DNA from: Styela clava
Taxonomy: Eukaryota
Assembly: GCF_964204865.1 (NCBI RefSeq)
Contig: NC_135263.1
Location: 11,408,001-11,472,000, forward strand
Length of the DNA: 64,000 nt
Direction: 5' to 3'
Shown here piece by piece: positions 2,714-54,447 of the stretch. The notes below the pieces were generated by a model. That model was not told where the DNA came from. It did no database searches and saw only the letters and a list, made by a program, of their open reading frames with translations. The translations under genes were made by a program, and so were the position numbers. Each line of letters begins with the position of its first letter. Positions within the stretch are counted from its first letter, which is position 1.

Positions 2714-3844
2714 TTAGAATTCATCTGTGGATTCATCATCTTTACTATTTTGTTTTGGGAAATCATTAACATCTTCAAACATCTCTAGATCCTCAGCATC
2801 TTGTTTTTCAGAATCTGAATGCTAAAATTAAAGAAGAATTGACAATGCATATCAAAGTCTATATAACACAAATTCAATCAAGATGCATTTTGAAAATAAC
2901 AAAATATATAAAAAAAAATTCAATTAATTGGACAAATTTATCCGTTAAAAGTGTATTTACAACAGCGCATTTCTACAAGGATAAATTGAATAGTACAAAC
3001 AGATTCAGTTTCTGTTGGTCTGTTGCAAACCAGATTAATTTTTGTCTCACCTCGTCAGGTTTGTCGCTGGCTGTGTCATAACCATAACCAACAGCACTGT
3101 TTCTGTAAATGAACAACAATGGAAAAATTGGTAACAGCAATAAAAATGATAGGACAACAATTGAAAGAAAAGGTCGCCCGCTCAGAAACGTTGCAGGACA
3201 AAATAACAAATATAAAGAAACTATTTGATCACAAGAAAGGAGGATAACTTTTTATCCAATTACTACTGCTTCATCGGTTATAAGACGATGGGCCACTTAT
3301 GAGTAGCGGGTATTATAAGGTATTATGACAGGACGTAACCGACTAACGAATGACATAACTCGGACATTGCTGAATTCAGCAATCCTCCCAGTCATTACCA
3401 TGAGTATTACACAAAAAATCCGTCCATATACTAATGATGAATTGTAATCGTACTTATAAAAGTTGAAATATGCAAATTTTATCTTGACCCTAAATGATTG
3501 GCTTATATTGAGAATTTCATTTGTTTGCAAACATGGGAAAAAATATATCTATATATATATATAATATTGTTTTACATATGGCTTGATTGGAGTCTCTTAA
3601 GCTCGTTGCCCTCTTCCGTAATTTGGGTGCCGTGATTGACTATTTTTTCAGCCAAGTTTCCGATGGTCATCATCAATCTTTGGTAGCTCTGGATACTGCT
3701 TTTAAGTTTTGTAACTTCTTTCTCTTTTCCTTCATATTTTTCTTTGTACGGCGTTGGGCATCGTCTGCGTCGACCCCAAGAATTCCCAGTATCGAAAGCA
3801 AGAATTGACAGTAGGACTATTTGGATTAAAAATACGGAATTCAT
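2714..3844 (-). CDS. Cluster gene 1: secreted prepropeptide (142 aa), Lys/Glu coiled-coil subtype
   Basis: Exons 3844-3576, 3102-3051, 2821-2714, all GT-AG, phases 2 and 0. Signal MNSVFLIQIVLLSILAFDTGNS, then WGRRRRCPTPYKEKYEGKEKEVTKLK...SSHI NSAVGYGYDTASDKPDE HSDSEKQDAEDLEMFEDVNDFPKQNSKDDESTDEF*. A further donor (2708) and acceptor (tttttgcag, 2463) indicate a non-coding last exon. Confidence 0.85.
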
Positions 3845-7068: not shown

Positions 7069-8296
7069 CTAGAAATTATTAACATCTTCAAACATCTCTA
7101 GATTATCAGCATCTTGTTTTTCAGAATCAGGGTTCTAAATAAACAAGAATTTACAATGCATATCTCAGTCAATATACCACAAATTTAATCGCGGTGCGCA
7201 TGGTGCGTTATAAACATAACAAAATATATAAAAAAAAAAAGATTCAATTAATTGGATAAATTTATCCGTTCAAGTGTATTTGCAACGTGCTTTCCACAAC
7301 GATAAATTGAAAGGTACAATCAGTATTAGTCACCTCGGCAGGTTTGTCGTCGGCTGTGTCATTACCAATCGCACTGCTCCTGTTAAAATAAATAAACAAC
7401 AATGAAAAAAATGGTAACAGTAATAAAAATGAAGGAAGACAATGGGAAGAAAACGTCGATTGCTCAGAAACGTTGCAGGATAGAATAACAAATAAAAAGA
7501 AACTCCTTGATCACGAGAAAGAGCATATCTTTTTATCCGATCCACACAGCTTCATCGGTTATAGGACAATGGTGGGCTAACTACTTATGCGTAGGTGAAG
7601 TTATTATAACAGGACGGAACCGACCAACGAATGACATAACTTGGATGGACATTGATGATTTCAGCAATTCTCATGGTCATTACCAAAAGCATTACTAAAA
7701 AATAAGCTCACATACTAACGATGTAGCCACACTTTAATTAAATTGAAAGCCTCATTAAAATCCTGTAGTTGTTCAAAATTGAAATCTATTCAATTAGATA
7801 TGTTATATAGTTTTAACATCATGGAAAAATAAAAACACAATAGTAATTGATCCATGCTATGGTTATGTATCTTTTATCAAAATAAAAAATATAATATGTT
7901 CAAATAAAGAGGGTCATGTTGAGTTCAATTATAAAAGTATGCAAATTTTCATATTTACATTGAGAATTTTATTTTTTTGTAAACATGGAAAAGGAAAAAA
8001 TATGTATATATATAAGATTTTTTTTACGTATATCTTGAATGGAGGTTTTTAAGCTCGTTGCCCTCATTCGTAATCTGAGTGCCGTGATTAATTATTTTTT
8101 CAGCCAAGCTTCCCATGGTCATCATCAAGCTTTGGTAGCTCTGGATTCTCTTGTTTAGTTTTGTAACTTCTTTTTCTTTTGCTTCATATTTTTCCTTGAA
8201 CGGTTGTGCGCAACGTCTGCGTCGACTCCAGGAATTTCCAGTATCGAAAGCAAGAATTGCCAGTAAGACTATTTGGATTAAAAACACGGAATTCAT
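7069..8296 (-). CDS. Cluster gene 2: tandem paralog of gene 1 (126 aa; acidic tail shortened by an apparent 1-nt deletion)
   Basis: Exons 8296-8028, 7379-7334, 7134-7069 (GT-AG). MNSVFLIQIVLLAILAFDTGNS WSRRRRCAQPFKEKYEAKEKEV...HSRYT SSAIGNDTADDKPAE NPDSEKQDADNLEMFEDVNNF*. Aligns to gene 1 across exons, introns and flanks. Confidence 0.82.
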
Positions 8297-11276: not shown

Positions 11277-12544
11277 TTATTCTCTCTTCTTGCTTTCTTC
11301 TTTTTCTTTTTCTTCTCTTTCTTCATTTTCTTTAGCTTCAGCAGAATCGTTATCAAACATTTCCTGCTCATCGCTATCGTCTTCAAAGTTGTCTGCTGAG
11401 TCTTCGTCAATCTGTGGTGGAGAAGTGATTAATTGTACACAAATCATACATGCTTGTCTTAGATATCTAATCCGCAAAATAATACACATTTTGACATTTG
11501 CGAATAACAGCAACATGGTATAGATTTTAAATTGCCAATTGTAGGCTGTGTAATGTTGTTCGCTGTGTTGCGGAATCATAATAAAGCTAACACGCGAAAA
11601 ACTTTCACAAAGAAAAGAAATAATCAAAATCCAAAATTAAAAGTTTGAGGGTAGGACCCTAATAATAAAAATGACAAATATGTAATAATATAATATAATA
11701 TAATAAAAATGTCTACCTGGCGTTTAAATTATTATAATGAGAACAGCAAACAAACAATTTAATATTAAGGAAGAACTTTTCAAGTTTCGTATCAGTATCA
11801 GTAAATTTTTGCAAATACACGCCTTATCTTGCCTTGTTTGAACACTAAAATTCTCATAAATAAATAACATTATTTTGCTATATTTCAACATGGCTGCTGT
11901 AGTTCTATTTTGTCTTTTGCTATGACAAGCAAATAAAACTGTTAACTCACTTCTTCGTCATTTAGTATTTCATCGTCAAGTTCATCCTCATCTCCCCAAC
12001 GGCGTGCAATTTTTCTGCAAAATAAAAATAAGGGGGTTTATTTTTGGTGCTTAACCCAGAGAAAAAAGTTGTAAAAAGGGCTTAGAAGAATAGAACTCAT
12101 TCTCATTTCACGATGCTGGTCGCGGCTGTCTATTCAACAATGATCCAAATCTATTTAAAAAACAAAAAAAAATTTGACCTGAGCATAATAATGACATTAT
12201 TTTCAAAAATTAATATGCGACTTTTGCGATTAATTTTCAACCTACATGTTTGTGGTATGGTGTGCTAGCAACTCTCTTCCTATTTTAGTCACTGCTCCTC
12301 CATATTGTAACGCTCTGACCCCCAAACGGTGAATGTACGTGAGCAACTGTGTGTAATGTCTTTGAATGACACTGTATCTTTTTGCTTTCGCTCGATAACG
12401 GTTGAGAATACTATGGTAATGAGCCTTGTAATTGAGATGGCAGGAATGTCTACGACGGCGACGCCTTCTTCGCCACCAGGAGTCGCCACTTTCGAACGCG
12501 AGCATCGCCACAAGCGCCAACACAATCACTAACTTCATCTGCAT
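11277..12544 (-). CDS. Cluster gene 3: secreted cationic His/Tyr/Arg-rich prepropeptide (165 aa)
   Basis: Exons 12544-12246, 12014-11951, 11411-11277. MQMKLVIVLALVAMLAFESGDS WWRRRRRRRRHSCHLNYKAHY...HHTTNI KIARRW-G-DEDELDDEILNDEE IDEDSADNFEDD...KKRE*. Acceptor ctttcag 4 nt before the ATG. Donor 2 nt after the stop, next acceptor at 11028. Confidence 0.88.
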
Positions 12545-14789: not shown

Positions 14790-16007
14790 CTAAACTTCCC
14801 GAACAAAATCTCCAGCTGAAAAAAAATAGAATATCTTCAATGGTAATGACGGTTACAATGGTAAAAAATTGATTTTGAACACAATACTGACCTACGAATC
14901 CTTTTTTTAAATTATTTTCGTTGTTGTAGTTAGGTTAAAAAAATGACTACTGAACCAATTAATCAAAATTATGGCAGTTAATAGGAAAGATAAAACTGTG
15001 GTGTTGTACAAAGTATTGTTAAAGTTTAAATCAGTAACATGCGATAGTTTCAAAATAAAAAATAAAAAAATATATCAAAGTTCCGGGGTGTGCCGAATAT
15101 TTCTAATTACAAATCTTTCAGTAAAGCCTATTTTTAAATTACTTACCATGTTGGGGAAGTCCATTTTCCTGTTTCTCTTCTTTTTCCTCGAACAGATGTT
15201 GATCGTCATTCTCTTCATTGAAGTTGTCTTCTATTGCGTCATTCTGTTTTAGAAAAATATATTTATTGAACATGTCGTCCGGAATGCAGCACTTGGTAGT
15301 TTTTGATGACCACTCTCCATGCAACTGGCCCTCACTTTTCACTCGTTATTTCAAGACAAATCAATTATATCAATGCTTCAAAAGTAGGATTAATGGAATT
15401 TTCTCAATTAAACATCGATATATGTGAATAGTTCTGCTGTAAAAATGAAACTTGACTGTTTATTTGCTTTTGTATATTTATAACTTAATTCACTCTCCCA
15501 AAACTTCTTTGTGTTTAAGTATTGAATTAATAATACCTCACTAAACTTACCATGTTGTCAGAAAACAAGTCATCATCAACTAAATCGTCATCTCCATAAT
15601 GATAGGCAATATGTCTGCAAAATAAAAATAATATAATCAATGAACACTATATTATATCAACAGCAAAAGTTTTATCTTAGGTAAGTGTTAAAACTTTCAT
15701 TAGTTACCACATACCTGTGCCTGGCATGTTGTGACAACAACTGTCTCCCGATTCCGGTCACGTAGCCACCATATCTAACAGCTTTCACTCCAACACCATG
15801 TACGTACGACACTAGAGCTTTATAGTTGGCTAGAACGACTCGGTATTTTGATTGCAACGCTCGGTACAATCTCAGAGTATTCAAATGATGAGATTTGTAC
15901 GCGTTGTAATAACGTCTACTTCTCCTCCGTCTCCTAGACCAGGATTCTCCAGATTCAAAAGCAAGAATTGCCACCAAACCCAACACAAGCAACAATTTTT
16001 TCTGCAT
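14790..16007 (-). CDS. Cluster gene 4: secreted cationic His/Tyr-rich prepropeptide (159 aa), no Cys
   Basis: Exons 16007-15715, 15614-15551, 15243-15147, 14815-14790 (phases 2,0,1; 480 nt open). MQKKLLLVLGLVAILAFESGES WSRRRRRSRRYYNAYKSHH...HARHR HIAYHY-G-DDDLVDDDLFSDNM NDAIEDNF...LPQH AGDFVREV*. The true start is the ATG at 16007, not the TTG used in the ORF track. Confidence 0.9.
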
Positions 16008-19955: not shown

Positions 19956-20855
19956 TTATTCTTCCAAATTCTTCACAATTTGATCAACTTGATCGGCATC
20001 TTCAGCTTAAAATAAAATGAGCAAAATGAATTATTTTTACATAAAAAAAAATAATAAAAATTGGAATAGAAATTATTTATTTTCCTTGTACGTCCTTTAT
20101 AGTACATACCTTCAATGTCATCAATATATTCAGGGAGAGCTGCCACAAGAGAATTCAAATCCATGTTCTACAAAGATAATGTGAGAGTAAATTTCCAATT
20201 ATAGAAGTTCGAGTATTTATTGGCATGATTATTTTAGGTAAAAGTCTATTTGTAAATCTAATGTGATGTCGTTTCAAAATTTACAAAAATCGTGTACAAT
20301 TTTTTGCTATATAAATTTATAAAGCAATATGCAGAAGCTAAGCTGATACCTTATTTAGCAGCATATCTTCATCTTCAAAAGCAGTGCGTCTGAAAATATC
20401 AGTCAATGAATTAATTTGAACACGATATTTGTGCCGGTAGTTACCAGTTAGGCACACTTTCTTGAGCCCTGTCGATCGCAAAGGCCCCACACGGTGTCGC
20501 AATTGTCGAAATGAGCTAAATATAGTACTGAACAGATGGTCCAGGGATCCACGCAAAGTTATTCTTATTGGCATCTTATGGAAAATATTCTCATCGACTA
20601 TTCCATTAAATACCAGTCAACCAACCTTTGTTTGGAAGGCAGAAGATGAGTTTGTTGGTTAAGTTTTTTCAGTGATCTCATCAATGAGTGGTATTCTTTC
20701 TTTATACGGTTGCGTTTCTTCAACAACGCCATATATCTTTGCCGCTCGTTTTTTGTAAGTCGGACTTGACCCTGGTGAATTGAATTACTCACGCTTGCTT
20801 TACTCGCAACAACGGCAAAGATGACAACAAGGGCAAGGGCAATCACAAACTTCAT
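19956..20855 (-). CDS. Cluster gene 5: highly diverged member (125 aa): signal, Lys/Arg-rich helix, acidic tail
   Basis: Exons 20855-20626, 20389-20350, 20167-20110, 20005-19956 (phases 2,0,1; 378 nt open). MKFVIALALVVIFAVVASKA...RLTKNERQRYMALLKKRNRIKKEYHSLMRSLKKL...KQR RTAFEDEDMLLNK NMDLNSLVAALPEYIDDIE AEDADQVDQIVKNLEE*. Last-exon context ttttaag|CTGAAGA is the same as in gene 8. Confidence 0.82.
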
Positions 20856-25095: not shown

Positions 25096-26609
25096 ATGAA
25101 AGTGAGATTCTTGATTCTTTTGGCACTTGTGGCGATCCTCGCCTTTGACGGTGGAGATTCTTGGAGTAGACGTAGAAGAAGAAGAAGACGTTGTCCCCCT
25201 ACATATACATCACAGTACCGCTCAGTGCGGAAACTTTATACTGCTTTGTATACACGCCATGTTAGTGTATTGGGTAAATACAAAGGTTTGCTTGCATTCG
25301 TCCTTCGAGAGGGTAGAAATGCAAAGAGATACGGCTACCAGATGAAAGCTCTTGGACAAAAAATGATTGCTAAGTTCTACAGCTACAGGTGGAACAAATT
25401 TGACATCTTACTTCATTATTTGATGCTAAAATACATATAACAATACTTTTCTTACAACCATATCGCATGGTATTTTTGTAGCAATCATAAACAATGAAAC
25501 AAAGCTAATTCACTCCAGCTGTGTTAATATTGAAATCTTCCGAGCTGTGTCATTTTTATGATCCTATAGAATTACAATAAAAAAATGGCTAATTGCTATA
25601 GTTTGTAAGAAAGTCACTGTATATAGTGATGAACAAGAAGGCAATGCTCAAATATATGGACATGAAAGCCGAAACGAAGTAGTAGCGTAACCACCACCAT
25701 ATGATTGAGATGTTATCACGGAACCACAGCACTCAATTTTTATTTCACGTTTTAATTTCACGTTCATATAATCAAGTTTACTTTCTAAGCGTTTTTGTTT
25801 TCGGTGTATTTCTATGTGACTTTCGATTTTCTTTATAAATATTCTCTTATTCTTTTTACGATTATTTATTACATTTCAGGAAATATGCTTATGGGGATAT
25901 GGAATTTGAGGACGAACCTTTTATAGACGAGGTAGCAGCGAGTAATATGTTGAGTTTTATACTTTGTAGGATCTGAAGTTTAAATTAGCTAATTCCATTT
26001 ACCAATTGCTATATTTATATTTATCAAGTGTCTTCCCAATCATTATTACTGATTATTTTATCCAAATCTTTGGAAACCCAAATATTTAATATATTTCTAT
26101 TCGGTAATCTTCTATTACAAAAAGTTAAAATCCTACAAAGATGTTATATAAAAAAATACTAATACGTTTGTTTTTCCTCACTCAGAGCCATGATTTCGAC
26201 GATGATAATATCAGTGAACAAGTCAACGATGATCAGGACATGTTTCAGGATTCAGAAGATTTTTCTGAAAACGAGGACGAAGAAGAAGTCAAGCAACTAC
26301 CCGATGAAGGTAACAAACCAAATGAATATATAAAAATACAACCATCTTGAATTTTTTTTATCCTAATGAGACACTAAACTTTGCTGTCGATCGATCGTAA
26401 CAATTTGTACTACAAACGTTATGAGATGAGTGAAGAATTTAAACAAATATTAAATTGCACAATTCAATCTCAAATCCGATCGCGGAGTGCGCCCGGTCCT
26501 AACAAAATCATAAAATTATGATAAACAGGACCAATTAAATGACAATTTCTTTTTATATTAAGTGCAAGACACCGATTCAAACGTGATAGAATCTCATAAA
26601 AAAGAATAA
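25096..26609 (+). CDS. Cluster gene 6: secreted cationic Tyr/Arg/Lys-rich prepropeptide (171 aa)
   Basis: Exons 25096-25388, 25880-25931, 26186-26309, 26563-26609 (phases 2,0,1; 516 nt open). MKVRFLILLALVAILAFDGGDS WSRRRRRRRRCPPTYTSQY...FYSYR KYAY-G-DMEFEDEPFIDE SHDFDDD...LPDE VQDTDSNVIESHKKE*. Confidence 0.88.
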
Positions 26610-33972: not shown

Positions 33973-34354
33973 GCCTGCTAAAACGCTTAAAAACAGTGAA
34001 AAACCGTCAAAAAACACCCAGAACCCTGCTAAACGCTTAAAAACAGTGACCAACCGTCAAAAAACACCAAGAACCCTGCTAAAACGCTTAAAAACAGTGA
34101 AAAAACGTCAAAAAAACACCAAGAACCCTGCTAAAACGCCTAAAAACAGTGAAAACCCGTCAAAAAACACCAAGAATCCTGCTAAAACGCTTAAAAACAG
34201 TGAACAACCGTAAAAAAACACCAAGAACCCTGCTATAACCCTTAAAAACAGTGAAAAACCGTCAAAAAACACCAAGAACCCTGCTAAAACGCTTAAAAAC
34301 AGTGAAAGCCCGTCAAAAAACACCAAGAACCCTGCTAAAACGCTTAAAAACAGT
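33973..34354. repeat. 51-bp minisatellite, about 7.5 copies
   Basis: Unit aaccctgctaaaacgcttaaaaacagtgaaaaaccgtcaaaaaacaccaag; lies inside the CACTA element. Confidence 0.95.
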
Positions 34355-35872: not shown

Positions 35873-36998
35873 ATGAAAGCACGATTCTTGATTCTTTTGG
35901 CACTTGTGGCGATCCTCGCTTTTGACGGGGGGGATTCTTGGTTTAGTCGTAGACGACGAAGGCGTCACTGCGCACCATCATTCAAATCAAGCTACTACGC
36001 ACTACTGAGGCATTATCGTGCCATGTATAGACGCCACATTCACGTACTGCATATGTACAGAGGTTTGGTTTCATTCGTCCTTCGAGAGGGTAGAAATGCA
36101 ATGAAATACGGTAACGATGTGAGAAATCTTGGGCGAAAAATGATTGCTCAGTTCCACAAACACAGGTAAAAAAAATTTTCTAAGCCTGACGATTAGAAAA
36201 CCGTCAAAATATTTTTCCACCACAGGGCCGCATGATATTTTCGCAGCAATCAAGACCATCCTCCAGCTATGTTTTCAAGTTTTGTGAACCAATAAACATG
36301 CGAATAATGATGTTGTGCAGTCCCCATATATTTTGAAAAAATTATCATGAAATATACTAATACTACGTGTTTATATCCTTTATATAAATATTTATTACAT
36401 TACAGACAATATACTGGCGATATAGAATTTGAAGACAAAACTTTCATGGACGAGGTAATAGAGAAAATATGTTTTAGACTTATTAGGATTGAATTTAACT
36501 GTCAATTACTATATTTATATACATCTATATTACCAAAACTTTAATCGCAACAAGTATCTTACATAAAAAAATACGTTTATTCTTGCTATCTTAGAGCCAT
36601 GATTTTGACGATGAGAAGTTCGATGAACAAGATATCGATGATCAGGACATGTTCCAGGATTCAGAAGATTTTGAAAACGAAGACGAGGAAGAACTCAAAC
36701 AATTATCCGGTGAAGGTAACAAAACATTACCAACAAACCAATTAAACAATAAAATATTTTGAGCTTTTTGTCATCTCAATAGGACGATAGTATTTGAGGT
36801 AACATCACGATTTTTTTAAACAAAACTGATAAATTACATTGATTTTAAAAGTTAGATTTATTTGCATTATTCAAACTCAAACTGGATCAGGCCCGATCCT
36901 AATTATAAACCCAAGGCTCTTTTAGAATATTATTTATTTTTTATTATTAAGTGGAAGACACCGATCAAAACATCCACGAGACTCAACAAAGAGAATAA
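35873..36998 (+). CDS. Cluster gene 7: paralog of gene 6 (169 aa)
   Basis: Exons 35873-36165, 36406-36454, 36595-36715, 36952-36998 (510 nt open). MKARFLILLALVAILAFDGGDS WFSRRRRRRHCAPSFKSSYY...FHKHR QYT-G-DIEFEDKTFMDE SHDFDDEKF...LSGE VEDTDQNIHETQQRE*. Confidence 0.9.
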
Positions 36999-38379: not shown

Positions 38380-39582
38380 CAGAGGCGGGCAACATACGGC
38401 CCGCGGGCCGGGTCCGGCCCGCGACGAGATTTTGACCGGCCCGCTGACTGTATCCAACCACACTCTGTAATGTGGTCCAACGAATCATTCCTGAAAGTTG
38501 CCGATCGCTCTACTCTGACCGCACTGTCAGAGCGAGCTGGTGAAATAAACAATTGCCTTAGTGAACAAACAATGGACCTTCCCCCGACCTTTAATCTCCG
38601 AAAAATTCTTTCTATATTTTACCATTGCAAAATTTTCGGGGCTTATTTTAAGAGTGATTTCGCGAGCTGGCGCCTGTAAAATGGGGTATGTGTTTCAAAC
38701 CATCATTATGATTCATCGCATAGAACAATCTGTCTTTCAAGAGTACCGATAAAAAATTTAAGGCCAGTCTATCACAGCTATTTCTACACTAATTCTTTAT
38801 TACTGCAATTAAATTAAAACTCATAAGAAGACAGAGTGATCATTGAATTATCCGATATATATTTAAATTTCCGAAACACAACTGAAATCTAACGAATAGA
38901 GTTCAAAAACGAGATAATGTTTACGACCACGCCTGAAAATCTGTCTAAGGGAGAAAAGTGTCTGAGCGGATACGAAAATGTGACATTGTTACGTCACTTT
39001 TGCACCTTGCTGATTGGCCAATGTCACGAAGTAAACAAGGAAGTTGATGCTCGGGGAAAGGTCCATTACGTTAGCACACTTGTTAAACAACAAAGCAAAG
39101 AGCGGTGTAAACATTCCCCACTACTGTTATATTTGGATTCTAAATATAAATAGATTTTATATTAGGTTTTATTAATCAGGGAATACCCCATGAAACGTAA
39201 ACTTGACAGAGTGTCGAGATTTAACAAAGATTGGATACCGAAGTATTTTTTACAAAGGTTGGCAACAAAGCAGTATGTTTACTGTGTGGTCAAAGTGTTG
39301 CGGTATAAAAAGAGTACAACATTAGTCTTCATTATGTAACGAAACGTGGAAACTATGGCAATAATTTATCAGCAGTGGAACGGCAAACTAGAGCAAAAGT
39401 ACTGGACAGAAAACTTGCTAGGCAGCAGAATGTTTTTTAAACGCGATTTATAATTTTCTTTCTTGCATTAGCAAATAAATATGTGATTAAGATATTGAAT
39501 ACTATTCATGTAATAATCCGGCCCGTCGAGGCCTTCATTTTCCCACATCTGGCCCGCCGACTAAAGAAGTTGCCCACCCCTG
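38380..39582. mobile_element. hAT (Charlie-like) non-autonomous element
   Basis: CAGAGGCGGGCAAC ... GTTGCCCACCCCTG; ggcccgcgggcc subterminal palindrome; 8-bp TSD GACTAATA. Confidence 0.9.
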
Positions 39583-40224
39583 GACTAATAATAGGTATTC
39601 TCCGGTAGCTCCTATAAACTGTTGTCTATTATAAGAAGCTGTATTAATAACCGTGTACCATCAGTTAACCTTATTAAACCATAAAAATAAATACAACAGA
39701 GGACATTTAAAATAATCAAGAGAAATTGCCTAGCAGTAACATATGGTTAACAATATCCGTGTTCATGGACCTGACAGTGTGTCGTTTGACAGTTTGGAAC
39801 CTCGGCCGTTCAGATTTTGTTTTCGTGTAACGCTAGTCTGCATGTCGCTACATCACATAGCCAGACAACGTATAGTCTTGCTATTGAGGCTCATGTTTTG
39901 TACCGATATGCGGTGCAGTGTATGAATAATCATTACGTTTAAACACAGAAATAACTTGTAGTCTACCTACTGACCGATAATCTATATCGACAAAAAGTCG
40001 GGTCACATATTTTACGAGGTAATTCTTTGTTTAAATACGGCATTTTGAAATTGAGATCACTATAGTAAACATATGGCTGAGTTCATACCTAAAAATTTTA
40101 CAGATGGAAAATATACTTGTCTGTAGGTTCTGTTAAGTGTCATTTACACCAAATTGATAATTTTTACAAATGGTATTGCAGTATACAATTATCTGTGACT
40201 GTATCATAATCTTGCTAGCTTATG

Positions 40225-43200
40225 TCACCCCATGTGATTCTTGTATATACCCGAACATGATAAATATTGATTTGATCATTTGTTCTTTGTTGTTGGTATT
40301 TTCAGTTCATGGAAATCAGACAGAAGAGAACATGAACCAAAAATGGATAACTGAATCATTCGTGAAAATGACCACGCCTACCATATCTTGTGTTGGGGGC
40401 TTGGGGCAGGCATATAAGTGAGTACAATCCTATGGGATACAAAATGCACAACAGGTCCCAATAGCCCATTGCAAGTCATGTAGTATACAAAATAAAGCGT
40501 GACATTTGACATTTTACCACACGGAAGCGGAACTGATTACATAACCTTTCGCTTAAAATGTCTTATCCGTGCAATAATGTGTTTCTGTATCCTGCACAAA
40601 TGTCACTAAATGAGGGAGGAAAATGATAAATGAGGGAGGAGCACACTCTCTGTGGTCTCACCCCATGTGATTCTTGTATATATAGCTACTAACCCCCAAA
40701 GGTACCCCATTTCATGTTGAAATCATCATGACAAAGTTAATTTTTCCCAAAATTCGAACAAAGACTTTCGTAGGAATCAAATTACACCAGGTTTAGGAAC
40801 ATAACAGGTTCCATCCAGTCATTATCAAATTAAAATCTATATTCTCAAGACCTTTGGCACTGATTGAAATAATTATATCTAAGTTCCCATCCGTACGATG
40901 TACATAATTACCCTTGTTGAGATAATAGGAATTTCTGTTTATAACGTGAATCACGAGCTCACGTTTACAGTATTTAATAAGGTTTATGATCAACGTATAA
41001 ATACGACTCCGATATCTTTCGATAAGGAGAGAGAAGACGATGTAAACCATTCAAAGCGAGTGTGGATAAGTGTTTTAAGATTTGTATTCTGTGTGTTGTG
41101 GAAATTTACAAATAAAAACATATAGAGATTTTTAACGCATCTTCATTCACGTGAAGCTGAAGGGTGAACGGGTGACTTGCAAGTCAGAGACAATCTACGA
41201 AATAGCAATATACGGTAACATCACATTCATCTAACAATCATTTATGCTATATATATACCCAAACATGATAAATATTGATTTGATCATTTGTTCTTTGTTG
41301 TTGGTATTTTCAGTTTATGGGAATCAAACAGAAAAGAACATGAATCAAAAATGGATAAATGACTCATTCGTGAAAATGGCCACGCCTACCATATCTTGTG
41401 TTGGGGGCTTGGGGCGGGAATATAAGTGAGTACAATCCTACCTTGCTGGGCTACAAAATGCACAACAGGTTCACGTCGAAGACGAGTCGATAATTGAGCA
41501 ATTTCCGGCACATCAATAAGGTCGATATTTTGCAAGTATGGTCTATAGATAAGTTATAGAACTCGCTAAAAATTATTCGTGTTTTTATGCTAGGTAATAT
41601 TACACCATATTGCAACAGTACAACTTAACCGAAATACCGGTAGGTGCTCGCCACTAATACAGTCTAGTAATACTGTAATAATTAGTTCAGAAGATCCAAG
41701 GTGCTGCAGAGACACACAAATAGGTTCGAAGTTCACGATGCAAACGAAGAGACTTTATTAAAATAGTGTAAAATCCACGCTCAAAGCAGATAAAATAAGA
41801 GCGACAAAATACGGTCATTACCAAGCGACAGCAGAAGCAAGAAGAGTGACACTGCGAATCCGCAGCAACGGTTCACATATGCAGTGGTGGTTGGAGTCGA
41901 GTAACTGAAACCAACTGTCCGGCAAATTAGGGCTCAGACTCCACACACCAATGCCTATGCAATACCTAGACACTAAATATAAATAAAATACAAAATAATA
42001 AAAAATAGGACAATTCCAGTCCCGCCACAATATCATGGTTGCGTACATTCTGAGAATCCTACATAAAATTCTTCAACTTACCCTTCATGAGGTAAATGGC
42101 AGAATACTACCAAACAGTCTACCGGCAACGACCCAATAGCCCATTGCAAGTCATATAGTATACAAAATAAAGCATGACATTTGACATTTTACCACACGGA
42201 AGCGGAACTGATTACATAACCTTTCGCTTAAAATGTCTTATCCGTGCAATTATGTGTTTCTGTATCCTGCACAAATGTCACTAAATGATAAATGAGGGAT
42301 GAGCACACTCTCTGTGGTCTCACCCGATGTGATTCTTGTATATACCCAAACATGATAAATATTGATTCGATCATTTGTTCTTTGTTATTGATATTTTCAG
42401 TTTATGAAAATCAAACAAAAAAGAGCATGTCCAAAAATGGATAAATGACTCATTCGTGAAATTGACCACGCCTACCATATCTTGTGTTGGGGGCTTGGGG
42501 CAGGCATATAAGTGAGTACAATCCTACCTTGGTGTGATACAAAATACACAACAGGTTCACGTCAAAGACGAGCCCATAATTGAGCAATTTCTCGCACAAC
42601 AGTAAGGTCGATATTTTGCAAGTAAGGTCTATAGATGAGTTATAGAACTCGCTAAAAAATATTAGTTTTTTTATGCTAGGTAATATTACACCATATCGGG
42701 GTTACGTACATTCTGAGAATCTTACATAAAACTCTTCATATTATCCTTCATGAGGTAAATGGCAGAATACTACCAAACAGTCTACCGGCAACGACCCAAT
42801 AGCTCATTGCAAGTCATATAGTATACCAAATAAAGCATGACATTTGACATTTCACCACACGGAAGCGGAACTGATTATATAACCTTTCGCTTAAAATGTC
42901 TTATCCGGGCAATAATGTGTTTCTGTATCCTGCACAAATGTCACTAAAAACATTGTTAAAGTATAAATTAGTCAAGAAGTTGAACCTCTAAACTGCAAAC
43001 TACAAATCATTTTGTACGGCACGCAATGGGAGGTTTGCCCATTCGTTTTTTTTATGCTAGGTCATATTACACCATATCGTAGTTGCGTACATTCTGAGAA
43101 TCTTACATAAAACTCTTCATATTACCCATCATGAGGTAAATGGCAGAATACTACCAAACAGTCTACCGGCAACGACCCAATAGCTCATTGCAAGTCATAT

Positions 43201-43420
43201 AGTATACAAATAAAGCATGACATTTGACATTTCACCACACGGAAGCGGAACTGATTACATAACATTTCGCTTGAAATGTCTTATCCGTGCAATAATGTGT
43301 TACTGTATCCTGCAAAAATGTCACTAAAAACATTGCTAAAAGTATAAATTAATCAAGAAGTTGAACCTCTAAACTGCAAACTACAAATCATTTTGTACGG
43401 CACGCAATGGGAGGTTTGCC
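40225..43420 (+). repeat. Multiplied upstream modules of gene 8 (putative promoter/first-exon block x3, downstream block x4)
   Basis: gttgggggcttggggc..TATAAGTGAG block at 40413, 41421 and 42507; one copy at gene 9 (51726). cccaatagc.cattgcaagtc...gtcactaaa block at about 40457, 42132, 42795 and 43176; one copy at gene 9 (about 52335). Confidence 0.85.
41611..42029 (-). mobile_element. Probable solo LTR (419 bp)
   Basis: TG...CA ends and a 4-bp TSD ATAT. The empty site (acaccatatcg...gtacattctgag) is visible at about 42690 and 43070. AATAAA on the minus strand near 41755. Confidence 0.7.
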
Positions 43421-44105
43421 CATTTTTACTGGCGCGTAATAATATAGCAACCATTCGGTATATGGTTTCAGTATGCATTAGCATTTAGTGGTTGTACTTG
43501 AATTTACTACCGATTGAGTATACAGCACCTTGCGATGAGCAAGTTCTCATAAAATAAATTATTATCCATATCTACCTGTAGGAAATGCTTATCATAAAAA
43601 TGTGAAACGAGTGAATCAAATAGGATTTTACACCCGTTTCATATACTATAACAATATGAAGGTTTTTACTGGCGCGGTGAGAGTGCCAATGTGACAAAGT
43701 TGCTCTTTTTAATTAAGCATTTTTAATGAGAATTAAAATTAGATTTTTAGTAATGTGAATTTGGTAACGCGTATTAAGCATTTTTAATGAGAATCATAAA
43801 TAGATTATAGTAATGTGAATTTGGTATCGTGCTTTTATTTCAATTCTTAAAAGACCATACGATTAAAGCACTCGTGTACTGAATATTTCAACATACAGAG
43901 ATTGGCATTACTTGCACACACGCAATCTCGCCAGTCAGGTTATATTACGCTATGAACAGCCCATCCTGACAAGTTCATGTGAATTTAAACACACTCCAAA
44001 AGAAGCACTTTGAAAAGGACACAATATCACTATTGTTGGCTAAATTTCTTATCAGCTTTTTACAAGGTGAATTCTATTTTTTAGATTGTGTAATATCGAA
44101 CAAAT

Positions 44106-45516
44106 ATGCAAACCAAATTGTTGATTGTTCTTGGTCTTGTGGCGATTCTTGCCTTTGAATGTGGTGATTCCTTTTGGAGAAGAAGGCATTACAGAAGAAG
44201 ACATCACTGTTCCTACTCCTACAAGGCTCACTACTATTCCATCCTGAGGCACTATCATACTGTCAACTCAAGATACCACGTCATCTTGAGGAATTACAGG
44301 ATCCTTGTCAATTACATACATCACGTTGGCGTCAAAGCACTCCGATACGGAGGCCACGTGACTGCCATAGGAAGACAACTTCTTCATCAGTATTCCAGAC
44401 ACCAGTAAGCAATCCCCGATCAATATTAGTGTGTTTAATATGAAAATAGACGGCGCTTTTAACAATTAAAGTCTTTGTGCCGAACAATATTAGTGGCACA
44501 CAGATTAATGTCGAGATGCCAAGGATAAAAAGTTTAATTTCTAGAATTAAAAAAAGTTTGTAATACCCTCTTTTCTACAATTTAGGAATGAAAATTCTAT
44601 ACTGTTTGTGCTATCTTCTACCCCAAAATTAAAAACTGTATTTTAATTGAATTTTCGGAATTTTTATCTAATAATCACCCCGCCTAACGTTCTCAAAATA
44701 AGATCGTATTTTTCGGTTTTATGTATATTTGCCAAAATAAGTAGCCCTCTTTGACGTGTGTAGCTGAATGAACGTAATTTTGCACCAACTACTAGATTCT
44801 AAGTATTACGAAATGCGTTGATTGAGGATTGTTATATATTCCGAGCCAATAAAATTTGAAAATTTATCATATTTCAGCCATATATCTCATGTCTACGGAG
44901 ATGAAGAAGATATCGAAGAGAGTGATCTTTTTGCCGAAAAAGATGTTCGTAAATTTATTTTTATTTGAATAAAATTTGGAAGTCATTTACCGTTTCAAAT
45001 AAATCGAAATATGCCAACTTTGATCTCATGTTTTAAATTATTGACAACAAAATCAAGATGTGACGTTATATTCACGATAACCACCATAATGATGTCAAAT
45101 ATCTTTAACTTTAACCACAATGCTTTACTACTTGCATTCAAAAGAATGCTCACTATATATATGTCCGAGAAGAACGAGTATTGATATATATAAAATATCA
45201 TTGTACGTTAAGAATATTCGAACTGATAAAAATAAATAATATTGATCTTACATAAACTTTATCAACAGAATGATAGTTTCGAACAAGAATTTGATGACCA
45301 GAACGATGATCGGGATATGGTCGAAGACTCTGAAGATATGAGTGAAAACGAAAATGAAGAAGACCTGAAGGAACTCCCCGAAAAAGGTGAACATATTTAA
45401 GTTGTGTTACTTGTGTTGTAAAAGGATTGATGATTGTTGTTAAGCCTTTGATTTGAATGATTTTCTTATTTTAAGCTGAAGACGTCAACAAGGATCATAA
45501 TCTCAACGACAAATAG
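44106..45516 (+). CDS. Cluster gene 8: His/Tyr-rich, clavanin-reminiscent prepropeptide (174 aa)
   Basis: Exons 44106-44404, 44878-44944, 45269-45386, 45476-45516 (525 nt open). MQTKLLIVLGLVAILAFECGDS FWRRRHYRRRHHCSYSYKAHYY...YIHHVGVKALRYGG...YSRHH HISHVY-G-DEEDIEESDLFAEKD NDSFEQEF...LPEK AEDVNKDHNLNDK*. Confidence 0.9.
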
Positions 45517-48277
45517 TCTGCTAGGAGAAAATGACAAAATTTTACAACCTGACCTAGAACCGAAGCTGAAACAAATGTTGTCTATAGATAGCTCTATGCG
45601 TTCATAGACCATACTTATGTGAACTTTTCTTTATCCTTTCACGTGAAATTGTCATTGTCTGCATAATCATAAATATACTGCATAAAGAAAAATTTTGACA
45701 AAATTATTTATACACAAACATCCGTGTCAGTGTTGCTTCTCAGTGCCACGTCATATTCAATGAAAAGATACGTTGTAGCGTTGGATTCAGCTTTATTAAT
45801 ACGAAATGCATGCCACAAAATTAGGTTAGATGATATCCAATATACAGCATTAGATATGTCAGGTCGGGGTCTATTCGAGATTCAGTCAGCAAATCTTCTA
45901 GAAGGAAACAGCAAAATGTTTCAGACAGCGTTATCGAAATAGATGAAGTGGTGAAGATGAACCATGTGGTATGGTGAATAGTCCTTTTCAAACGGAATTT
46001 ACGTCTTGCCCACGGTGATATGAAGACATAAACTGCAAAATAAAGTGAATGATTGAATATACTTCTCTAACTTATAATTAATATCAAAACCAACACAGAG
46101 AATAGGGAGAGAAAAATGACAAATACGTGAAATCAGGGGGTTCAACTCACCAAGACAGAGATTTTTCCTTTTTTTTTTGAGTGAATGATATTCATGTTTT
46201 ATAATTAACAACGATGAATCTGCTATTTTGTTCGATTTTTAATGTCTTGAGACGATGAAGTGATAATAAAAGTTCAGTTTCTGCAATTTTGTTCAATTTC
46301 AATTCTGTATTCTATCATCGAATAAAAAACGATTCGAAGTAAGAAAACATCACCGGCTCAATTTCTCACGCTTTTCATATCTCAGTTTAGAAATGGCCTT
46401 GTTGCATTCCAGTCATGCAGAGTGAAAGTAACGTGAAACTCATAAAATTTATTGAACTTCGTTATACTATAAACATGAGGAATGTTGAATATAGGAGATG
46501 AATAGATATTTACTAAATCTAATCCCCTGACAGTAATGATGAATTGTACTGCAAGTGTTTTTGACATGGTTCTTTCGATTTGCGGGGTTGCGACCCATTT
46601 CAACGACTTTAAAACATCTCGCGAGAATTTTAATTTCCCGCCATTAATTAAATGACTGCCATATGCATCATTTTTGGAATGGGTGTACGAAATGTTACAT
46701 TAATTTATGCCATTTTTCATATATATTAACCATTTTTAGGCTTTTCATGAAAAATTTAATCACACTCAAAGCAGTACCGCTTTGTGATTTCACATTATCC
46801 ATATCTATTATGACGTAACAAAATTACCATATGCCGCGCCTTTGGCGATAGAATTCCCTTTAACACACGGTGGACGCTCGCTGCATTTTATGCAGTAGGG
46901 AGATTGAGAATGCTAGACTTATGTGTGACTATACTACTGACTTTTCTGTCACGTAAAATATTCAATTCGTGACAGCTACGAGAATCTATAAAAAAAAATT
47001 CTATATTGATATAATTGTGTCCAACGTAACTCACAGTTGTGTATTCTTTCATCAAAATTTAAACATTACTAGTCTAAAATACCGCTTAATCTGTTGACGT
47101 AAAAATCTGAGATAAACATGTCTAATTGTATTTAGTGTCGATACTTTTATGTGATCTTACGAATTCGTTGTCGCCGTTAGAAAAATCTCAAAATCTGTAA
47201 TAAAAATCTCCTATAGTACAATTAAATACATATGGAGTATATCAGTTAATCAAAATTGCATCTTTATCGCCTCGAAATCCCCGCGGAACGACTTTTTCGA
47301 CGGATAATAACAATTTTTCTGTTGTGCAAAGTAATCAATCCATGACCGATACTGCCATATTTAAAAAATGTCTTGATTTGTTATAATATACTTGTCTTCG
47401 ATTTAACCTGCGGCGGCGTCACCAAAATAAATGCCTCCCTACCCTAAAAGACCACGTCAATCCGCTGATATAAAAATGTGTGGTAAACATCCCGGTTATA
47501 TCTAGTTTTGATCCGTATTTTTGCTTTTTTGCGGATTCGACAAATCTGAGCTGTACTTGAAACAATGACACCGCTCTATAGCAAAGCTGTCACTCAGATT
47601 ATTTTCAAGATGAAACAGTTAGAAAAAAAAAAACATATCTGCTATAAAGTCTCACGGAGTAAAATGTATTCATACATCACCACGAACCTTATAATATGAA
47701 TCATATAATATAATGGATAAAAAGGTAAAATCCGCGCACAATTGATTGTGTTTCGACTTTCGATTCTAGTGACGTTATGATTCTCAACGCCGTCCAAACT
47801 TATGTGTGCCCTAGAGCGCTAGGCACACGAAATTTCGCATTTTACAATGTCTTGAAAAACTTTTTTTCTGTCGCGGGCCTTCCACAATTGTTTAAGGTTT
47901 CATAATTTAGTATTTTATATTGACGCCTTTCAATCAAAAAATTTGCGTCTCCGATTCACTCCTTTATTTGACTTCAGCATCTCGACGCCGATGATTGTAT
48001 AATGACTCTCAGGGAATTCACAATTCTGGGCAATTACAAAAGAAAGTGATTATTATCGTTGTCGTGAAATAATTTTTATGATTCAGAGAGAATAGATATC
48101 AACTTTAAAGTGTTCACGGCCTAAATAACACGTCACGCTGACAAAAACAATCGGCGATTTAAGCAAAAAGCTGTACGAATTGCCCAAAAGTATGATTTGA
48201 TAAAATAATATTCAATATTTCACAATTTTTTAAAGGGCAAAAAGTAACTCGACAGTAGTAGTAGTAAGTCGTTAAAC

Positions 48278-49561
48278 CAGGGGTCACCAAACTACGGCCC
48301 GCGGGCCGGATCCGGCCCGCGGCGTCATTTTATCCGGTCCGCAATAACACGCAAAAATGGCTAAATTTTTTTCCAAGGAAGATTTTCACGAGCATCGTCG
48401 TCCTTGTTTATTTCGTAACATTGGCCAATCGGCAAGATGCAGAAAAGTGACGTAATAACACTTTTGTCACCCTAACAGATTTTCAGTCGTGGTTGTAAAC
48501 AAAACTTCGTTTTTGCGACTTTGAATGCTACCAGTACGTAACGTTTTCTGCGATACACTTGTACACTCCTGGCGCTTGCTTTCGACGAAACTGTTTGTTT
48601 TTTGTGCTAAAATAAACGTCGAATGTGCATCTTGTGCTAACAGTACTGTAATCCCTCGCGTACTGCTCCAATTTCAAAAGCCACACTAACTTTTGTACTG
48701 CTTTAATGCGGATATTCATGTAGGTATGTTACAAAAAAATTGAAGTTCTTCCGATTTAAATAAAAACTAACGGAGATATCGGAATTTTAGTACCGCCCGA
48801 CTGCCAATTTTTTCCATAATGATTGTATTACTTTTTTGATAAGAACTGTACTAAATATGGAAAAATAACACATATCAATCACTAATCTTTCGATGTGCGT
48901 CATATCTATGGTATATTGAGATAATTTCAGGATTTTATTCTGGCAACTGTCATTGACACCGCCGAATGATCGTCGCAAATAAACGCTGGAGTTGTGCATG
49001 ATAGTTTGACAGTGGTTCATTGTGGGTAATAATTAACGATGTTCTGATTGTACGAACTTCATAAAAATTGGTACGTATCAAGTTAGACAAGAAATACACA
49101 CGTCCATATAAATTTTATTGGTGTCCATAGACAATATCAATAATTTGCACTACGTATAACTGGAGCGTAATTTTTAAAAGCGTCGAATGTTGGGAAATTT
49201 ATGCGCATGAAATTCAAATACCAGATAATAGTTGTTTATTTTATCTAAATTATGTCAAAATTTCATAGAATTCCAAGATACAGGAGGCAGTCGTTTTTAT
49301 GAGCGATATTTCAACACGGCGTAACGGTACTTAGCAAACGTGATGCGTACATTTTTTGTCGCGGATTTTGTAACATTTCTAATTCATGACAGCAACGTTT
49401 TGATAACAGCTAAACTCCTTGGATGTTCTCGATCTATATTCTGCGATATTCCCAACATTTGTGAATTTATTGTATTGCATTGACAAAAATATTCATCCGG
49501 CCCGTTTCAACACAATTTGAGTCATACCCGGTCCGCGGACAAAAAAGTTTGGTGACCCCTG
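48278..49561. mobile_element. hAT (Charlie-like) non-autonomous element
   Basis: TIRs CAGGGGTCACCAAACT / AGTTTGGTGACCCCTG; 8-bp TSD CGTTAAAC. Confidence 0.93.
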
Positions 49562-51932
49562 CGTTAAACGAGTAGTTTTAGTTGAAGTAGCGAAGCGTTT
49601 CCGAAAGTAGCCAAATATGGCAACACTGCATCGCGCATGCTTATCTACACCAAAGTGATTATAGTCACTACACTGATTTCGCGTACAGATTTCGGCCTCT
49701 CGTCGATTGCAGGTAAATATTGCATGTTTTTCCAATCAATTCGTGGAATTGTTAGTTTTTGTTCAAATGTAGAATGTTTGTGACACTACAAAAATAAATA
49801 TCTGAATCTGCCTCAAATCACTTGGCGTGCCATGAGAAATTCTCTCGCGTGCCACAATTGGCACGCGTGCCAGGGGTTGCCGACCCCTGCTAGCTATTGA
49901 GGCTCATGTTTTATACCGATATTCGGTGCAGTGTGGGAATCATCATTACGTTTAAACACAGAATAAGTTGTAGCCTACCTACTGACCGAGAAATCTATAT
50001 CGACAAAAAGTCGGGTCACATATTTTACGAGGTAATTTTTTTTTTAATACGGCATATTGAAATTGAGATCACTATAGTAAACCTATGGCTGAGTTCATAC
50101 CTAAAAATTTTACAGATGAAAAATATACTTGTCTGTAGGTTCTGTTAAGTGTCATTTACACCAAATTGATAATTTCTACAAATGGTATTACAGTATATAA
50201 TTATCTGTGACTGTATCATAATCTTGCTAGCTTATGTGATGTGCAAGATTGGTTTTATTAAACCCTCATGCCTCTACCAACGCATCTGACGGTTGTCGAA
50301 GTTACTTGCTGGCTCACTTTGCCGATTAACAAAATAGACGGCAGAAAGAAAAAAAATATCAAATCAAGCATCAAATTACAGCATTTAAAAGAAGTAAAAA
50401 ATGACTTAAGCGTTGTCACGTGAAATCACATTGATTTCGCAAGCATGTAAAATCAATGAAAGCCGTGTGGAAGTCTCTGAGAAAGAGTGCTATATGTGGA
50501 GAAAACCTACACTTCATCAATCTTCAATACATTTTTAGTGAAGTTGGAAACAGGAAATAGGCATAAAATACTCGAAGAGCTGAAAACATTTCCAGCACTG
50601 ATTTTATAGTTTTATTCAAAAGTTTTATTTTCAAATAAAACACAAATATGTGCGCAAAACCTTGAATCTAGCTCTATCACACACAAGTGTTATAAAAAGA
50701 TGGTACCAAAAGGTTCGTTTCGTTTTGGACATCTTGAGTTTAGGCTTTCATTTTCATCAACTGCTTATACTGCGATAATATACAAAAGCAGTATGCTCGT
50801 CAGCTTTGCATTTTAGAGTGTTTACAGATTCAGAGAGTTGTAAATATTTTGCTATTCGCTATAAAACTATTTGTAACCCATAAAAATTGCGTTATATATT
50901 TGACTGACCATCTGCACTTGTATACACGATATTCTAATACAATGTAGATCATAGGCATGATGTAGATCTCGTTCTTGAAAAAATGTGGTGGTTTGAGCGA
51001 TTACACAGTAGATATAAGTGGAAACAATTGTTTTTGAATGATCTCCTAAAAACGCAATAAACTCCACGAGAGAGATTTCACCAAAGTCTTCAGTTGGTCT
51101 CGCTCACGCTAGTTCTATTTATATGTATAGCTCGGGTACTACAGAGCCAGGCCACGCAGTGATTTTGAGATCGTCATAATATACATACAAATACATGGAA
51201 ATACATACCAAATACATGGAAATGGGAAAGCGATTCCGAAAAGCCACCTCGGGTGATGTTCTGTAGTCGTGAATGTTCGCTTTTGACTGATACATTGCCC
51301 ATATTACTCATCACCGGCTTACGCAAAATGAAAGAAAAATAGCACGGTATGGTGGGCTCGGATCTATTAGCGTTTCATACTTTATAAGAAACGAATCCAT
51401 ATCAGGCGAATATGCAAGAAAAATCGACGAAAATAATTGATTTCTGTGGAATACCATAATAAATGCAATTCGCGGCACGTCTTCAAAACGAGAAAGCCTT
51501 GATCACACATAAATGAGGGAGGAGCACACTCTCTGTGGTCTCACCCCATGTGATTTTTGTATATACCCAAACATGATAAATATTGATTCGATCATTTGTT
51601 CTTTGTTGTAGGTATCTTCAGTTTATGAGAATCAAACAGAAAAGACAAAAAATGGATAAATTACTCATTCGTGAAAATGACCACGTCTACCATATATATC
51701 TTGTGTTGGGGGCCTACGGCAGGCATATAAGTGAGCACAATCTTACCTTGCTGTGACACAAAATGCACAACAGGTCCACGTCGAGGAGGAGTCGATGATT
51801 GAGCAATTTCCGGCACATTAGTAAGATCGAAATTTTGAAAGTAAGGTATATAGGTGAGCTATAGAACTCGCTAAAAAATATTCCTTTTTTTATGCATCAT
51901 ATCGGGGTTGCGGACATTCTGAGAATCTTATA

Positions 51933-52263
51933 TAGGAAGTCCTCGACTTACGACGTTGTTCCGTTTTTGAGAAGCGGTGTAAGTTGGAACATTATACTGT
52001 ACAGTACATAAATTACTCTATAGGCCTACATATCGTACTGTTTTGTAAAGTATGGTACAGTAATAAAATGTACAAATAATGCAAAAAGTAGGCGATGTAA
52101 AATACGAAAACCAATGAGCCCAACGCACTGATTTTCTTGATCACAGTGATCCAGTTTAAGGGCTTAGATATTACAGTACAGTAATATCTTTTATATTTTT
52201 TGGAGTGCGTTAGTAACCTCGAAACAGCGCAAGTCGCGACCGTCGTAACCCGAGGACTCCCTG
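51933..52263. mobile_element. Tc1/mariner (Tigger/pogo-like) MITE
   Basis: Degenerate TIRs TAGGAAGTCCTCGACTTACGAC / GTCGTAACCCGAGGACTCCCTG. It interrupts gagaatctta-ca-taaaactc, which is intact in the paralogous copies at about 42715 and 43096. Confidence 0.8.
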
Positions 52264-53081: not shown

Positions 53082-54447
53082 ATGCAAACCAAATTGTTGA
53101 TTGTTCTTGGTCTTGTGGCGATTCTTGCCTTTGAGGGTGGTGACTCCTTTTGGAGAAGAAGGCGTCGTAGAAGAAGACATCACTGTTCCTACCCGTACAA
53201 GGCTCACTACTATTCCACCCTGAGGCACTACCGTACTGTCAGCTCAAGGTACCACGTCATCTTGAGGCATTACAGGATACTTGTTAATTACATACATCAC
53301 GTTGGCGTCAAAGCACTCAGATACGGAGGCCACGTGACTTCTATAGGAAGACAACTTCTTCATCAGTATTCCAGACACCAGTAAGCAATACCCGAACAAT
53401 ATTAGTATATATGTGTAATATGGCAATTTAATAATTATAGTCTTTTCGACCAAGAATGAAGAGTTTCGTTACTAGAATTTAAAAAAGTTTGTAATACCAT
53501 CATTTCTACAATTTAGAAATGAAAATTCCATACTGTTTGTTCTCTCTTCTACCCCAAAATTAAAAACTGTTTTTGAATTAAATTTTCGGAATTTCTATCT
53601 GGTAATCACCCAGACTAACGTTCTCAAAATAAGATCGTATTTTTCAGTTTTATATATATTTGGAAAATGAGTTGCCCTCTTTGGCGTGTGTAGCTGAATG
53701 AACGTAATTTTGCACCAACTACTAGATTCTAAGTATTACGAAATGCGTTGATTGAGGATTGTTATATATTCCGAGCCAATAAAATTTGAAAATTTATCAT
53801 ATTTCAGCCATATATCTCATGTCTACGGAGATGAAGAAGATATCGAAGAGAGTGATCTTTTTGCCGAAAAAGATGTTCGTAAATTTATTTTTATTTGAAT
53901 AAAATTTGGAAATCAGTTATCGTTTCAAATAAATCGAAATAGGCCAACTTTGATCTCATGTTTGCCTAGTTTTAAGTTACTGACAACAAAATCAAGATGT
54001 AACGTTATATTCACCATAATGATGTCAAATATCTTTTACTTTAAACTTTAATCACAATACTTTACTACTTGAGTTCAAAAGAATGTGCTTACTATATATG
54101 CCGAGTAGAACAAGTAATGATATAAAATATCATTGTACGTTAAGAATAATCGAACTTATTAAAATAAATATTATTGATCTTACATAAACTTTATTAACAG
54201 AATGATAGTTTCGAACAAGAATTTGATGACCTGAACGATGATCAGGATATGTTCGAAGACTCTGAAGATACGAGTGAAAACGAAAATGAAGAAGTCCTGA
54301 AGGAACTCCCCGAAAAAGGTGAACATATTTAAGTTGTGTTACTCGTGTTGTAAAAGGTTTGATGATTGTTCTTAAGACTTTGATTTAAATGATTTCTTAT
54401 TTCAAGCTGAAGACGTCAACAAGGATCATAATCTCAACGACGAATAG
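53082..54447 (+). CDS. Cluster gene 9: recent paralog of gene 8 (174 aa)
   Basis: Exons 53082-53380, 53808-53874, 54201-54318, 54407-54447, the same lengths as gene 8. Nine amino-acid differences in exon 1; exon 2 is identical. Confidence 0.9.

Follow-up and report, generated by a model that had tools for sequence, protein, structure and literature searches.

Our analysis of the window (the whole 64-kb stretch of Styela clava DNA under study) suggests that the product of its gene 8 is a secreted prepro-peptide like the defence peptides of ascidian hemocytes, in which a long helix would bundle and the acidic tail would act as a generic polyanion. We favour this explanation tentatively, and the function it assigns is a predicted one. 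The gene itself is real: it lies on the forward strand and consists of four exons encoding 174 aa. Exon 1 (44106..44404; residues 1-99 plus 2 nt) carries the signal, a Trp-poly-Arg piece, Cys35 and a heptad helix; exon 2 (44878..44944) carries the end of the cationic peptide (HxxxH at 100-104, Tyr106), Gly107 and the start of the acidic tail, which continues in exon 3 (45269..45386; predicted to be disordered, with pLDDT <50 and helix-free) and ends with the stop codon in exon 4 (45476..45516). Introns 1 (44405..44877; 473 nt, phase 2) and 2 (44945..45268; 324 nt, phase 0) are joined at GT..AG in contigs of all three runs presumed to be RNA (from three studies), and intron 3 (45387..45475; 89 nt, phase 1) in two of the three, none of the runs being recorded as RNA; a fourth run covers the gene 8 introns with no joint. 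One X1 contig that crosses introns 1 and 2 agrees with gene 8 wherever gene 9 diverges from it. The existence of such spliced contigs rules out an annotation artefact. The protein is identical to NCBI XP_039265789.2, the uncharacterized product of S. clava LOC120341366; a second acceptor 6 nt beyond that of intron 3 would lead to a 172-aa form, and a 172-aa isoform X2 is listed by NCBI.

Gene 8 belongs to a set of nine tandem paralogs (g1-g9) in the window. All share intron phases 2 and 0, followed by 1 in those that have a fourth exon. The first five lie on the reverse strand: g1 (2714..3844) and g2 (7069..8296), with Glu/Lys-mixed heptad helices of net charge about +6 and +7, respectively; g3 (11277..12544; LOC120341236), with 8 His and a tail of -25; g4 (14790..16007), with 7 His, a tail of -18 and no Cys35; and the distant paralog g5 (19956..20855), which matches the others in intron phases and has an acidic tail, but has no Trp-poly-Arg piece, Cys or Gly-Asp site and is counted as a member on its exon structure. 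On the forward strand, gene 8 is accompanied by g6 (25096..26609; 1 His, 23 K/R, tail -27), g7 (35873..36998; 7 His, tail -27, with an NCBI model of the same length) and g9 (53082..54447; LOC120341008), a recent duplicate of gene 8 with 91% protein identity. The models of g5 and g6 are sequence-only. The array of nine, together with conserved signals and divergent mature parts, supports the reading as defence precursors. The signal shows a dN of 0.02 in three close paralog pairs, and the mature parts of genes 8 and 9 (dN 0.049, dS 0.138) are under purifying selection, which rules out positive selection on gene 8. For the helix of g7 versus g6, dN (0.34) nominally exceeds dS (0.24). The paralog tree has weak resolution, with 2 of its 9 branches starred, and the order of events was not read from it.

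Several further features of the window were observed. Genes 8 and 9 arose from a tandem duplication of ~9 kb (36984-46099 versus 46091-55040); their exon 2 is identical and their tail dS is 0, whereas the introns differ by 7-8%, a hint of gene conversion or constraint. An older tandem duplication (1887-5735 versus 6257-9905, 75-86%) gave rise to g1 and g2, the last exon of g2 ending earlier than that of g1 (126 versus 142 aa). At 58543-59149 we found an orphan last exon of the genes 8/9 type with its 3' flank (80-82% identical) and no upstream exons, which reads as a truncated tenth copy. Two satellite arrays were noted (62274-63736, a 95-nt unit repeated 15.4 times; 33974-34358, a 51-nt unit repeated 7.5 times, whose open frame matches nothing in Pfam), as well as repeats of 150-450 nt dispersed ahead of genes 8 and 9 (40225-43445 and 51509-52604), possibly a non-autonomous mobile element; those upstream of gene 8 include a 381-nt tandem pair (42666-43424). 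The broken frames at 38330-39339 presumably resemble a decayed DNA-transposon gene, and Pfam gave no support to the transposon reading.

A profile built from eight first exons (g5 was left out) had eight matches among 1.84 billion representatives, namely four members of the family in S. clava, P0013 (with 3 His and an identity of 24% to gene 8), P0016 and two repetitive ENA proteins (P0014 and P0015) that were dropped as chance matches. The homolog search with gene 8 kept one of two candidates, the protein itself, and that with P0013 only P0013 among 73 candidates. Two ESM Atlas searches gave no usable match, Rfam had none, and Pfam scans of the family found nothing near a curated cut-off; none of the 11 family members scanned matched the Pfam Styelin model (PF17562) with an E-value of 10 or better. 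The Pfam scans and PDB searches contained no clavanin row, short models being insensitive; Pfam presumably holds a clavanin model. P0016 is the styelin-like product of S. clava LOC120342944 on another contig and the weakest of the profile matches (E 7e-4; hhalign 98%), and it speaks for the defence-precursor reading. It has the signal, the Trp-poly-Arg piece and the Gly-Asp boundary in common with the family, but most of the similarity comes from the N-terminal signal and poly-Arg, which weakens this link. We observed that this uncharacterized protein has poly-Arg before a styelin-like start and a 92-residue acidic tail, and it is a candidate new peptide of the styelin/botryllin type; its match to Pfam Styelin is weak (E 0.46), and a search with it for short styelins kept 0 of 3. 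We found no paper naming four of the paralog ids or describing such a family in the literature covered, to which most subscription journals, including those with the clavanin and styelin cloning papers, do not belong. Apparently, then, the family is a long-helix variant, new to the literature, of the ascidian precursors with an acidic tail.

Judged by its sequence, the gene 8 precursor is laid out like those of the styelin/clavanin type, with signal, Trp-poly-Arg, cationic region, Gly-Asp site and acidic tail, the boundaries 22|23 and 106|107 being predictions. The predicted signal peptide (residues 1-22; 44106..44171, forward strand, as all features of gene 8) is the best-conserved part of the family, and its cleavage is placed by the small residues at -3 and -1 that mark signal-cleavage sites. 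The Trp and poly-Arg piece (residues 24-32; 44175..44201), which in gene 8 is broken by His28 and Tyr29, is possibly an N-terminal pro-piece that is clipped off, as suggested by the poly-Arg that precedes the styelin-like start of P0016. A single Cys35 (44208..44210) ahead of the helix is present in seven of the eight aligned window paralogs (it is absent in g4) and is a candidate for an inter-chain disulfide. Eight ungapped heptads (residues 43-98; 44232..44399) are followed by Gly107-Asp108 (44897..44902), the predicted site of cleavage and amidation, common to g3, g4, g6, g7, g8, g9, P0013 and P0016. Styelins and clavanins are described as being cleaved before D or DD (PMC7387483). Tyr is the last residue of the predicted peptide in g4, g6, g8 (44894-44899), g9 and P0013; several ascidian peptides have a dehydrodopamine C-terminus (PMC3039461), so this end may be oxidised rather than amidated. 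The order of signal, cationic amphipathic helix (its helical moment is matched by 4 of 500 shuffles) and anionic C-terminal region is thus found in gene 8. A C-terminal anionic region is reported for 17 of 22 defence-peptide candidates in Ciona (PMC7387483), in a screen confined to Cys-free proteins of 50-100 aa, which the 174-aa gene 8 with its Cys35 would not have entered.

AlphaFold2 predicts a single helix at residues 39-98 (from exon 1) or 37-106 (from the whole chain), a shape that the original prediction did not mention, and a low-confidence, helix-free tail. Residues 43-98 carry the uninterrupted a/d hydrophobic repeat of a coiled coil, with large hydrophobes at 14 of 16 a/d positions (2 of 5000 shuffles reach that) and Tyr at four consecutive a positions, the others being Ile, Ala, Val and Leu. 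The register is kept in all nine rows tested (1 to 105 of 5000 shuffles), including the weakly charged g1 and g2; in P0013 and six genes of the window it continues for 56 residues without a break. Conservation within the family is highest at a, d and e, and Gly occupies 23 of 72 e positions in the nine rows; as a design rule, Gly at e favours higher-order coiled-coil assemblies. Each of the seven His in the gene 8 helix occupies a b, c or g position and faces outward; none is at a, d or e. Overall, these features suggest that the long helix of gene 8 may bundle as a coiled coil, the oligomer being a prediction. On the other hand, the family helix period is 3.51 on a binary scale and 3.55 and 3.56 on two continuous hydrophobicity scales, the latter values falling between 3.5, expected of a coiled coil, and 3.6, expected of a helix that faces lipid; the helix may thus be simply amphipathic. 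A prediction of a four-copy complex of residues 30-99, run without an alignment, scored 0.03 and is uninformative either way. Structure comparisons returned no match in Foldseek and only generic long helices in VIA-align (best Z 7.0, uninformative). In the PDB, residues 68-99 had no sequence match, and the nine rows obtained for gene 8 (best E 0.13), AN1 zinc fingers, were rejected.

We propose that, once the signal is removed, the precursor would enter secretory granules, its tail masking the cationic chain during mildly acid secretory transit as a generic polyanion, in the manner of defensin and frog pro-pieces. Cleavage at Gly107-Asp108 would release a C-amidated chain of 74-84 residues, depending on whether the poly-Arg is clipped; the freed 8-nm helix would use its a/d/e face to form a coiled-coil bundle, which Cys35 might link covalently, leaving Arg, Lys and His outside to bind nucleic acid or the anionic surfaces of microbes. 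At outer positions of gene 8, His would stand in place of Arg/Lys, with the tail unchanged, which would make its charge more pH-dependent than that of its paralogs, in the manner of clavanins. What counts against an antibiotic role is that g1 and g2 keep the heptads at a net charge of only +6 and +7 and with many Glu.

The persistence of the register in these weakly cationic paralogs speaks for a structural product. According to this alternative, which has a small though appreciable probability, the tail would keep the chains fluid in acid vesicles, and after release at pH 8, as the His lose their charge, they would form bundles or fibres that are cured by zinc-His binding and by DOPA cross-links made by phenol oxidase, in the tunic, a wound plug or an extracellular trap. 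On this account, evolution would have turned a styelin-type precursor into a structural or trapping material set by pH, with bundles or barrels fixed by zinc and DOPA, a derivation to which we give a similarly low probability, and the paralogs would tune its pH dependence through Arg-to-His exchange on the outer face. The eight heptads, the outer His and the 12 Tyr are consistent with it: styelin D of S. clava carries DOPA (PMC3039461), making the 12 Tyr candidate DOPA sites, and granulocyte DOPA products are reported to cross-link the tunic (PMC5465252). The mussel protein mefp-12 provides a precedent for a His-rich predicted coiled coil (PMC13022425), but its His-Zn sites are predicted within the coil, and the gene 8 helix has no His at a, d or e. 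Nor are the His conserved (1 in g6, 3 in P0013, 1-15 across the paralogs) or enriched in metal-site spacing: gene 8 has five His pairs at i+3, i+4 or i+7, a number reached by 90% of random placements. One motif agrees with the suggestion in the original prediction that His and Tyr could bind metals: the HxxxH of His100 and His104, which only genes 8 and 9 have and which sits at -7/-3 relative to the predicted C-terminus. This is the motif alone, equally far from the end as His17/His21, the proposed zinc anchor in the 23 residues of clavanin A (PMC8424629). In addition, blunt 8-nm rods have no evident means of end-to-end assembly.

The original prediction proposed that the tail is matched to the histidines, so that the precursor would be near neutral in an acidic granule and unbalanced at seawater pH. 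Its counts are exact: residues 23-106 contain 13 R and 2 K, 15 H, 12 Y and no D/E, and residues 108-174 contain 16 D and 16 E against 1 R and 5 K (net -26). With standard pKa values the precursor has a pI of 5.7 (5.3-6.7 across His pKa of 5.5-7.0) and a net charge of +2 at pH 5.5, but near-neutrality, within 5 charges, is confined to about pH 5.2-6.7 and is lost at pH 4 (+21); with the poly-Arg clipped the neutral range shifts to about pH 4.6-5.9. The expected imbalance at seawater pH was borne out by a computed net of -12 at pH 8.1. From pH 5.5 to 8.1 the precursor changes by 14 charges, more than any other of the six cationic paralogs (range 4-14, with 4 for the His-poor g6), and its shift in the +/- charge ratio, from 1.13 to 0.57, is likewise the largest; without His counted, the balance is -11. 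Near-neutrality in this range combined with the largest swing of the six means that the idea of titration holds.

The matching of the two parts did not withstand comparison among the paralogs. Tail and cationic charge correlate over all nine genes (rho 0.73 with His, 0.69 without) because three weakly charged genes drive the correlation, and in the six cationic paralogs rho falls to 0.22 and 0.06, with 0.04 for His versus tail charge. Five of these six have a tail of -25 to -28 whether the peptide has 1 His or 15; K/R and His trade off (r -0.87, n=6). When peptides and tails of g3, g4, g6, g7, g8 and P0013 were shuffled, the real pairings were no tighter (288/720 in acid, 448/720 at neutral pH); g9 (a near-duplicate of g8), P0016 (with a different helix) and g1, g2 and g5 (weakly cationic or without the Gly-Asp site) were left out of this test. 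In fact, the cationic part of gene 8 is left at +5 by its own tail and equally by those of g3, g6 and g7, which belong to peptides with 8, 1 and 7 His. Gene-specific charge tuning of the tail was rejected in view of the shuffled pairings and the interchangeable tails. Mutational drift at the outer positions may account for some of the His, as His28 and His51 each represent a single CGT-to-CAT difference between genes 8 and 9.

A tuned switch, with the tail set to the His-protonated peptide in a neutral complex or coacervate of the acid granule and release at seawater pH, is accordingly unlikely. It agrees with the pI and the ratio shift, and in each of four database sequences of genes 8/9 the residual charge is +4 or +5 when His is included, but these rows are near-duplicates. 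Botryllin pro-peptide is reported to be kept in morula-cell granules (PMC9966394), and a review mentions acid conditions in S. clava hemocytes (PMC5198042); a value for the granule pH was not found in the literature searched. At pH 8.1 the peptide would still be +15 against a tail of -27, so that pH alone need not release it. Overall, the interpretation in the original prediction is partly supported: the pH dependence of gene 8 is real on paper, and the matched peptide-tail pair is unsupported. The charge cancellation is the known net-charge balance of defence-peptide pro-pieces, an established, loose rule (PMC7073735), as expected if the tail were a generic polyanion.

We regard as more improbable still that monobasic cleavage produces clavanin-size, amidated, His-rich C-terminal peptides, with the helix merely an amphipathic monomer lying on the membrane. 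The HxxxH at the position found in clavanin A, the peak of gene 8 itself at 100.5-101.5 degrees on continuous scales and the size of known S. clava peptides (23 and 31-32 aa; PMC10608444) are in line with this scheme. Against it, the chain has no dibasic site beyond residue 32, g3, g6, g7 and P0013 do not have the C-terminal His cluster, and the 56-residue register is unbroken, with conservation that tracks a/d/e. Least probable are hetero-oligomer subunits or signalling ligands, none working alone, in which the cationic g3-g9 pair with the Glu/Lys-mixed g1 and g2: oppositely patterned paralogs of one cluster do share the register, the Gly stripe and the Cys, and disulfide-linked dimers are known from tunicates (halocidin and dicynthaurin; PMC10608444), but g1 and g2 are still net positive.

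Tunicate defence peptides in the literature covered are helices of 15-37 residues. The gene 8 family keeps the precursor layout of tunicates with a helix two to three times longer and a conserved heptad face, and may therefore act as a bundle. Its nine paralogs, with 1-15 His and a near-equal tail, form a natural series for comparing tuned with generic pro-pieces, and the same series bears on whether His-for-Arg exchange gives pH control. If assembly upon a rise in pH were true, the family would represent a small, synthesisable chordate counterpart of the His-rich glue proteins of mussels and a link from blood-cell peptides to tunic hardening.

Compared with known systems, gene 8 resembles the styelins and P0016 in having a signal, a cationic helix, a Gly-Asp boundary and a long acidic tail, and its Gly107, Trp24 and 12 Tyr are possible sites for modifications of the styelin type, which comprise amidation, DOPA, bromo-Trp and hydroxylated Arg/Lys. 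However, styelins are Phe-rich peptides of 31-32 aa (PMC10608444), and the predicted gene 8 product has 74-84 aa, one Phe and one Cys, thus sharing neither their length nor their Phe-richness. With clavanins, which are His-rich, cut before acidic residues, amidated and provided with an HxxxH zinc anchor near the C-terminus, gene 8 shares these traits as observed or predicted, the anchor as a motif only; clavanins are reported to be more active at pH 5.5 (PMC5198042). On the other hand, they are Phe-rich and 23 aa long (PMC10608444), no clavanin chain occurred among nine PDB sequence matches to P0001 at E up to 10, and the His-richness of clavanins and clavaspirin is no general trait of the gene 8 family. 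By these comparisons gene 8 appears to be neither a styelin nor a clavanin. Botryllin is a 37-aa peptide from a 158-aa precursor (PMC9966394), in contrast to the predicted eight-heptad product of gene 8. Dicynthaurin and halocidin of Halocynthia aurantium are helical and form inter-chain dimers through one Cys (PMC10608444), as gene 8 with its one Cys might; their chains of 15-30 aa were not matched in sequence, profile or PDB searches.

The mussel mefp-12 is, like gene 8, a secreted marine His/Tyr-rich long helix (a likeness by description). It is described as stored in acid and released at pH 8, with phase separation and curing that depend on Zn and pH, and as having zinc-finger-like domains and conserved His predicted inside the coil (PMC13022425), whereas the His of gene 8 are outside and variable, and an acidic tail is added. 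In alpha-defensins, frog peptides and Ciona MAM/PAP, as in gene 8, the charge of the cationic peptide is approximately offset by an anionic pro-part. For Ciona, anionic helices are described in the tails (PMC7387483), in contrast to the predicted disorder of the gene 8 tail, and the charges in the gene 8 family are much larger, about +25 to +30 versus -18 to -28.
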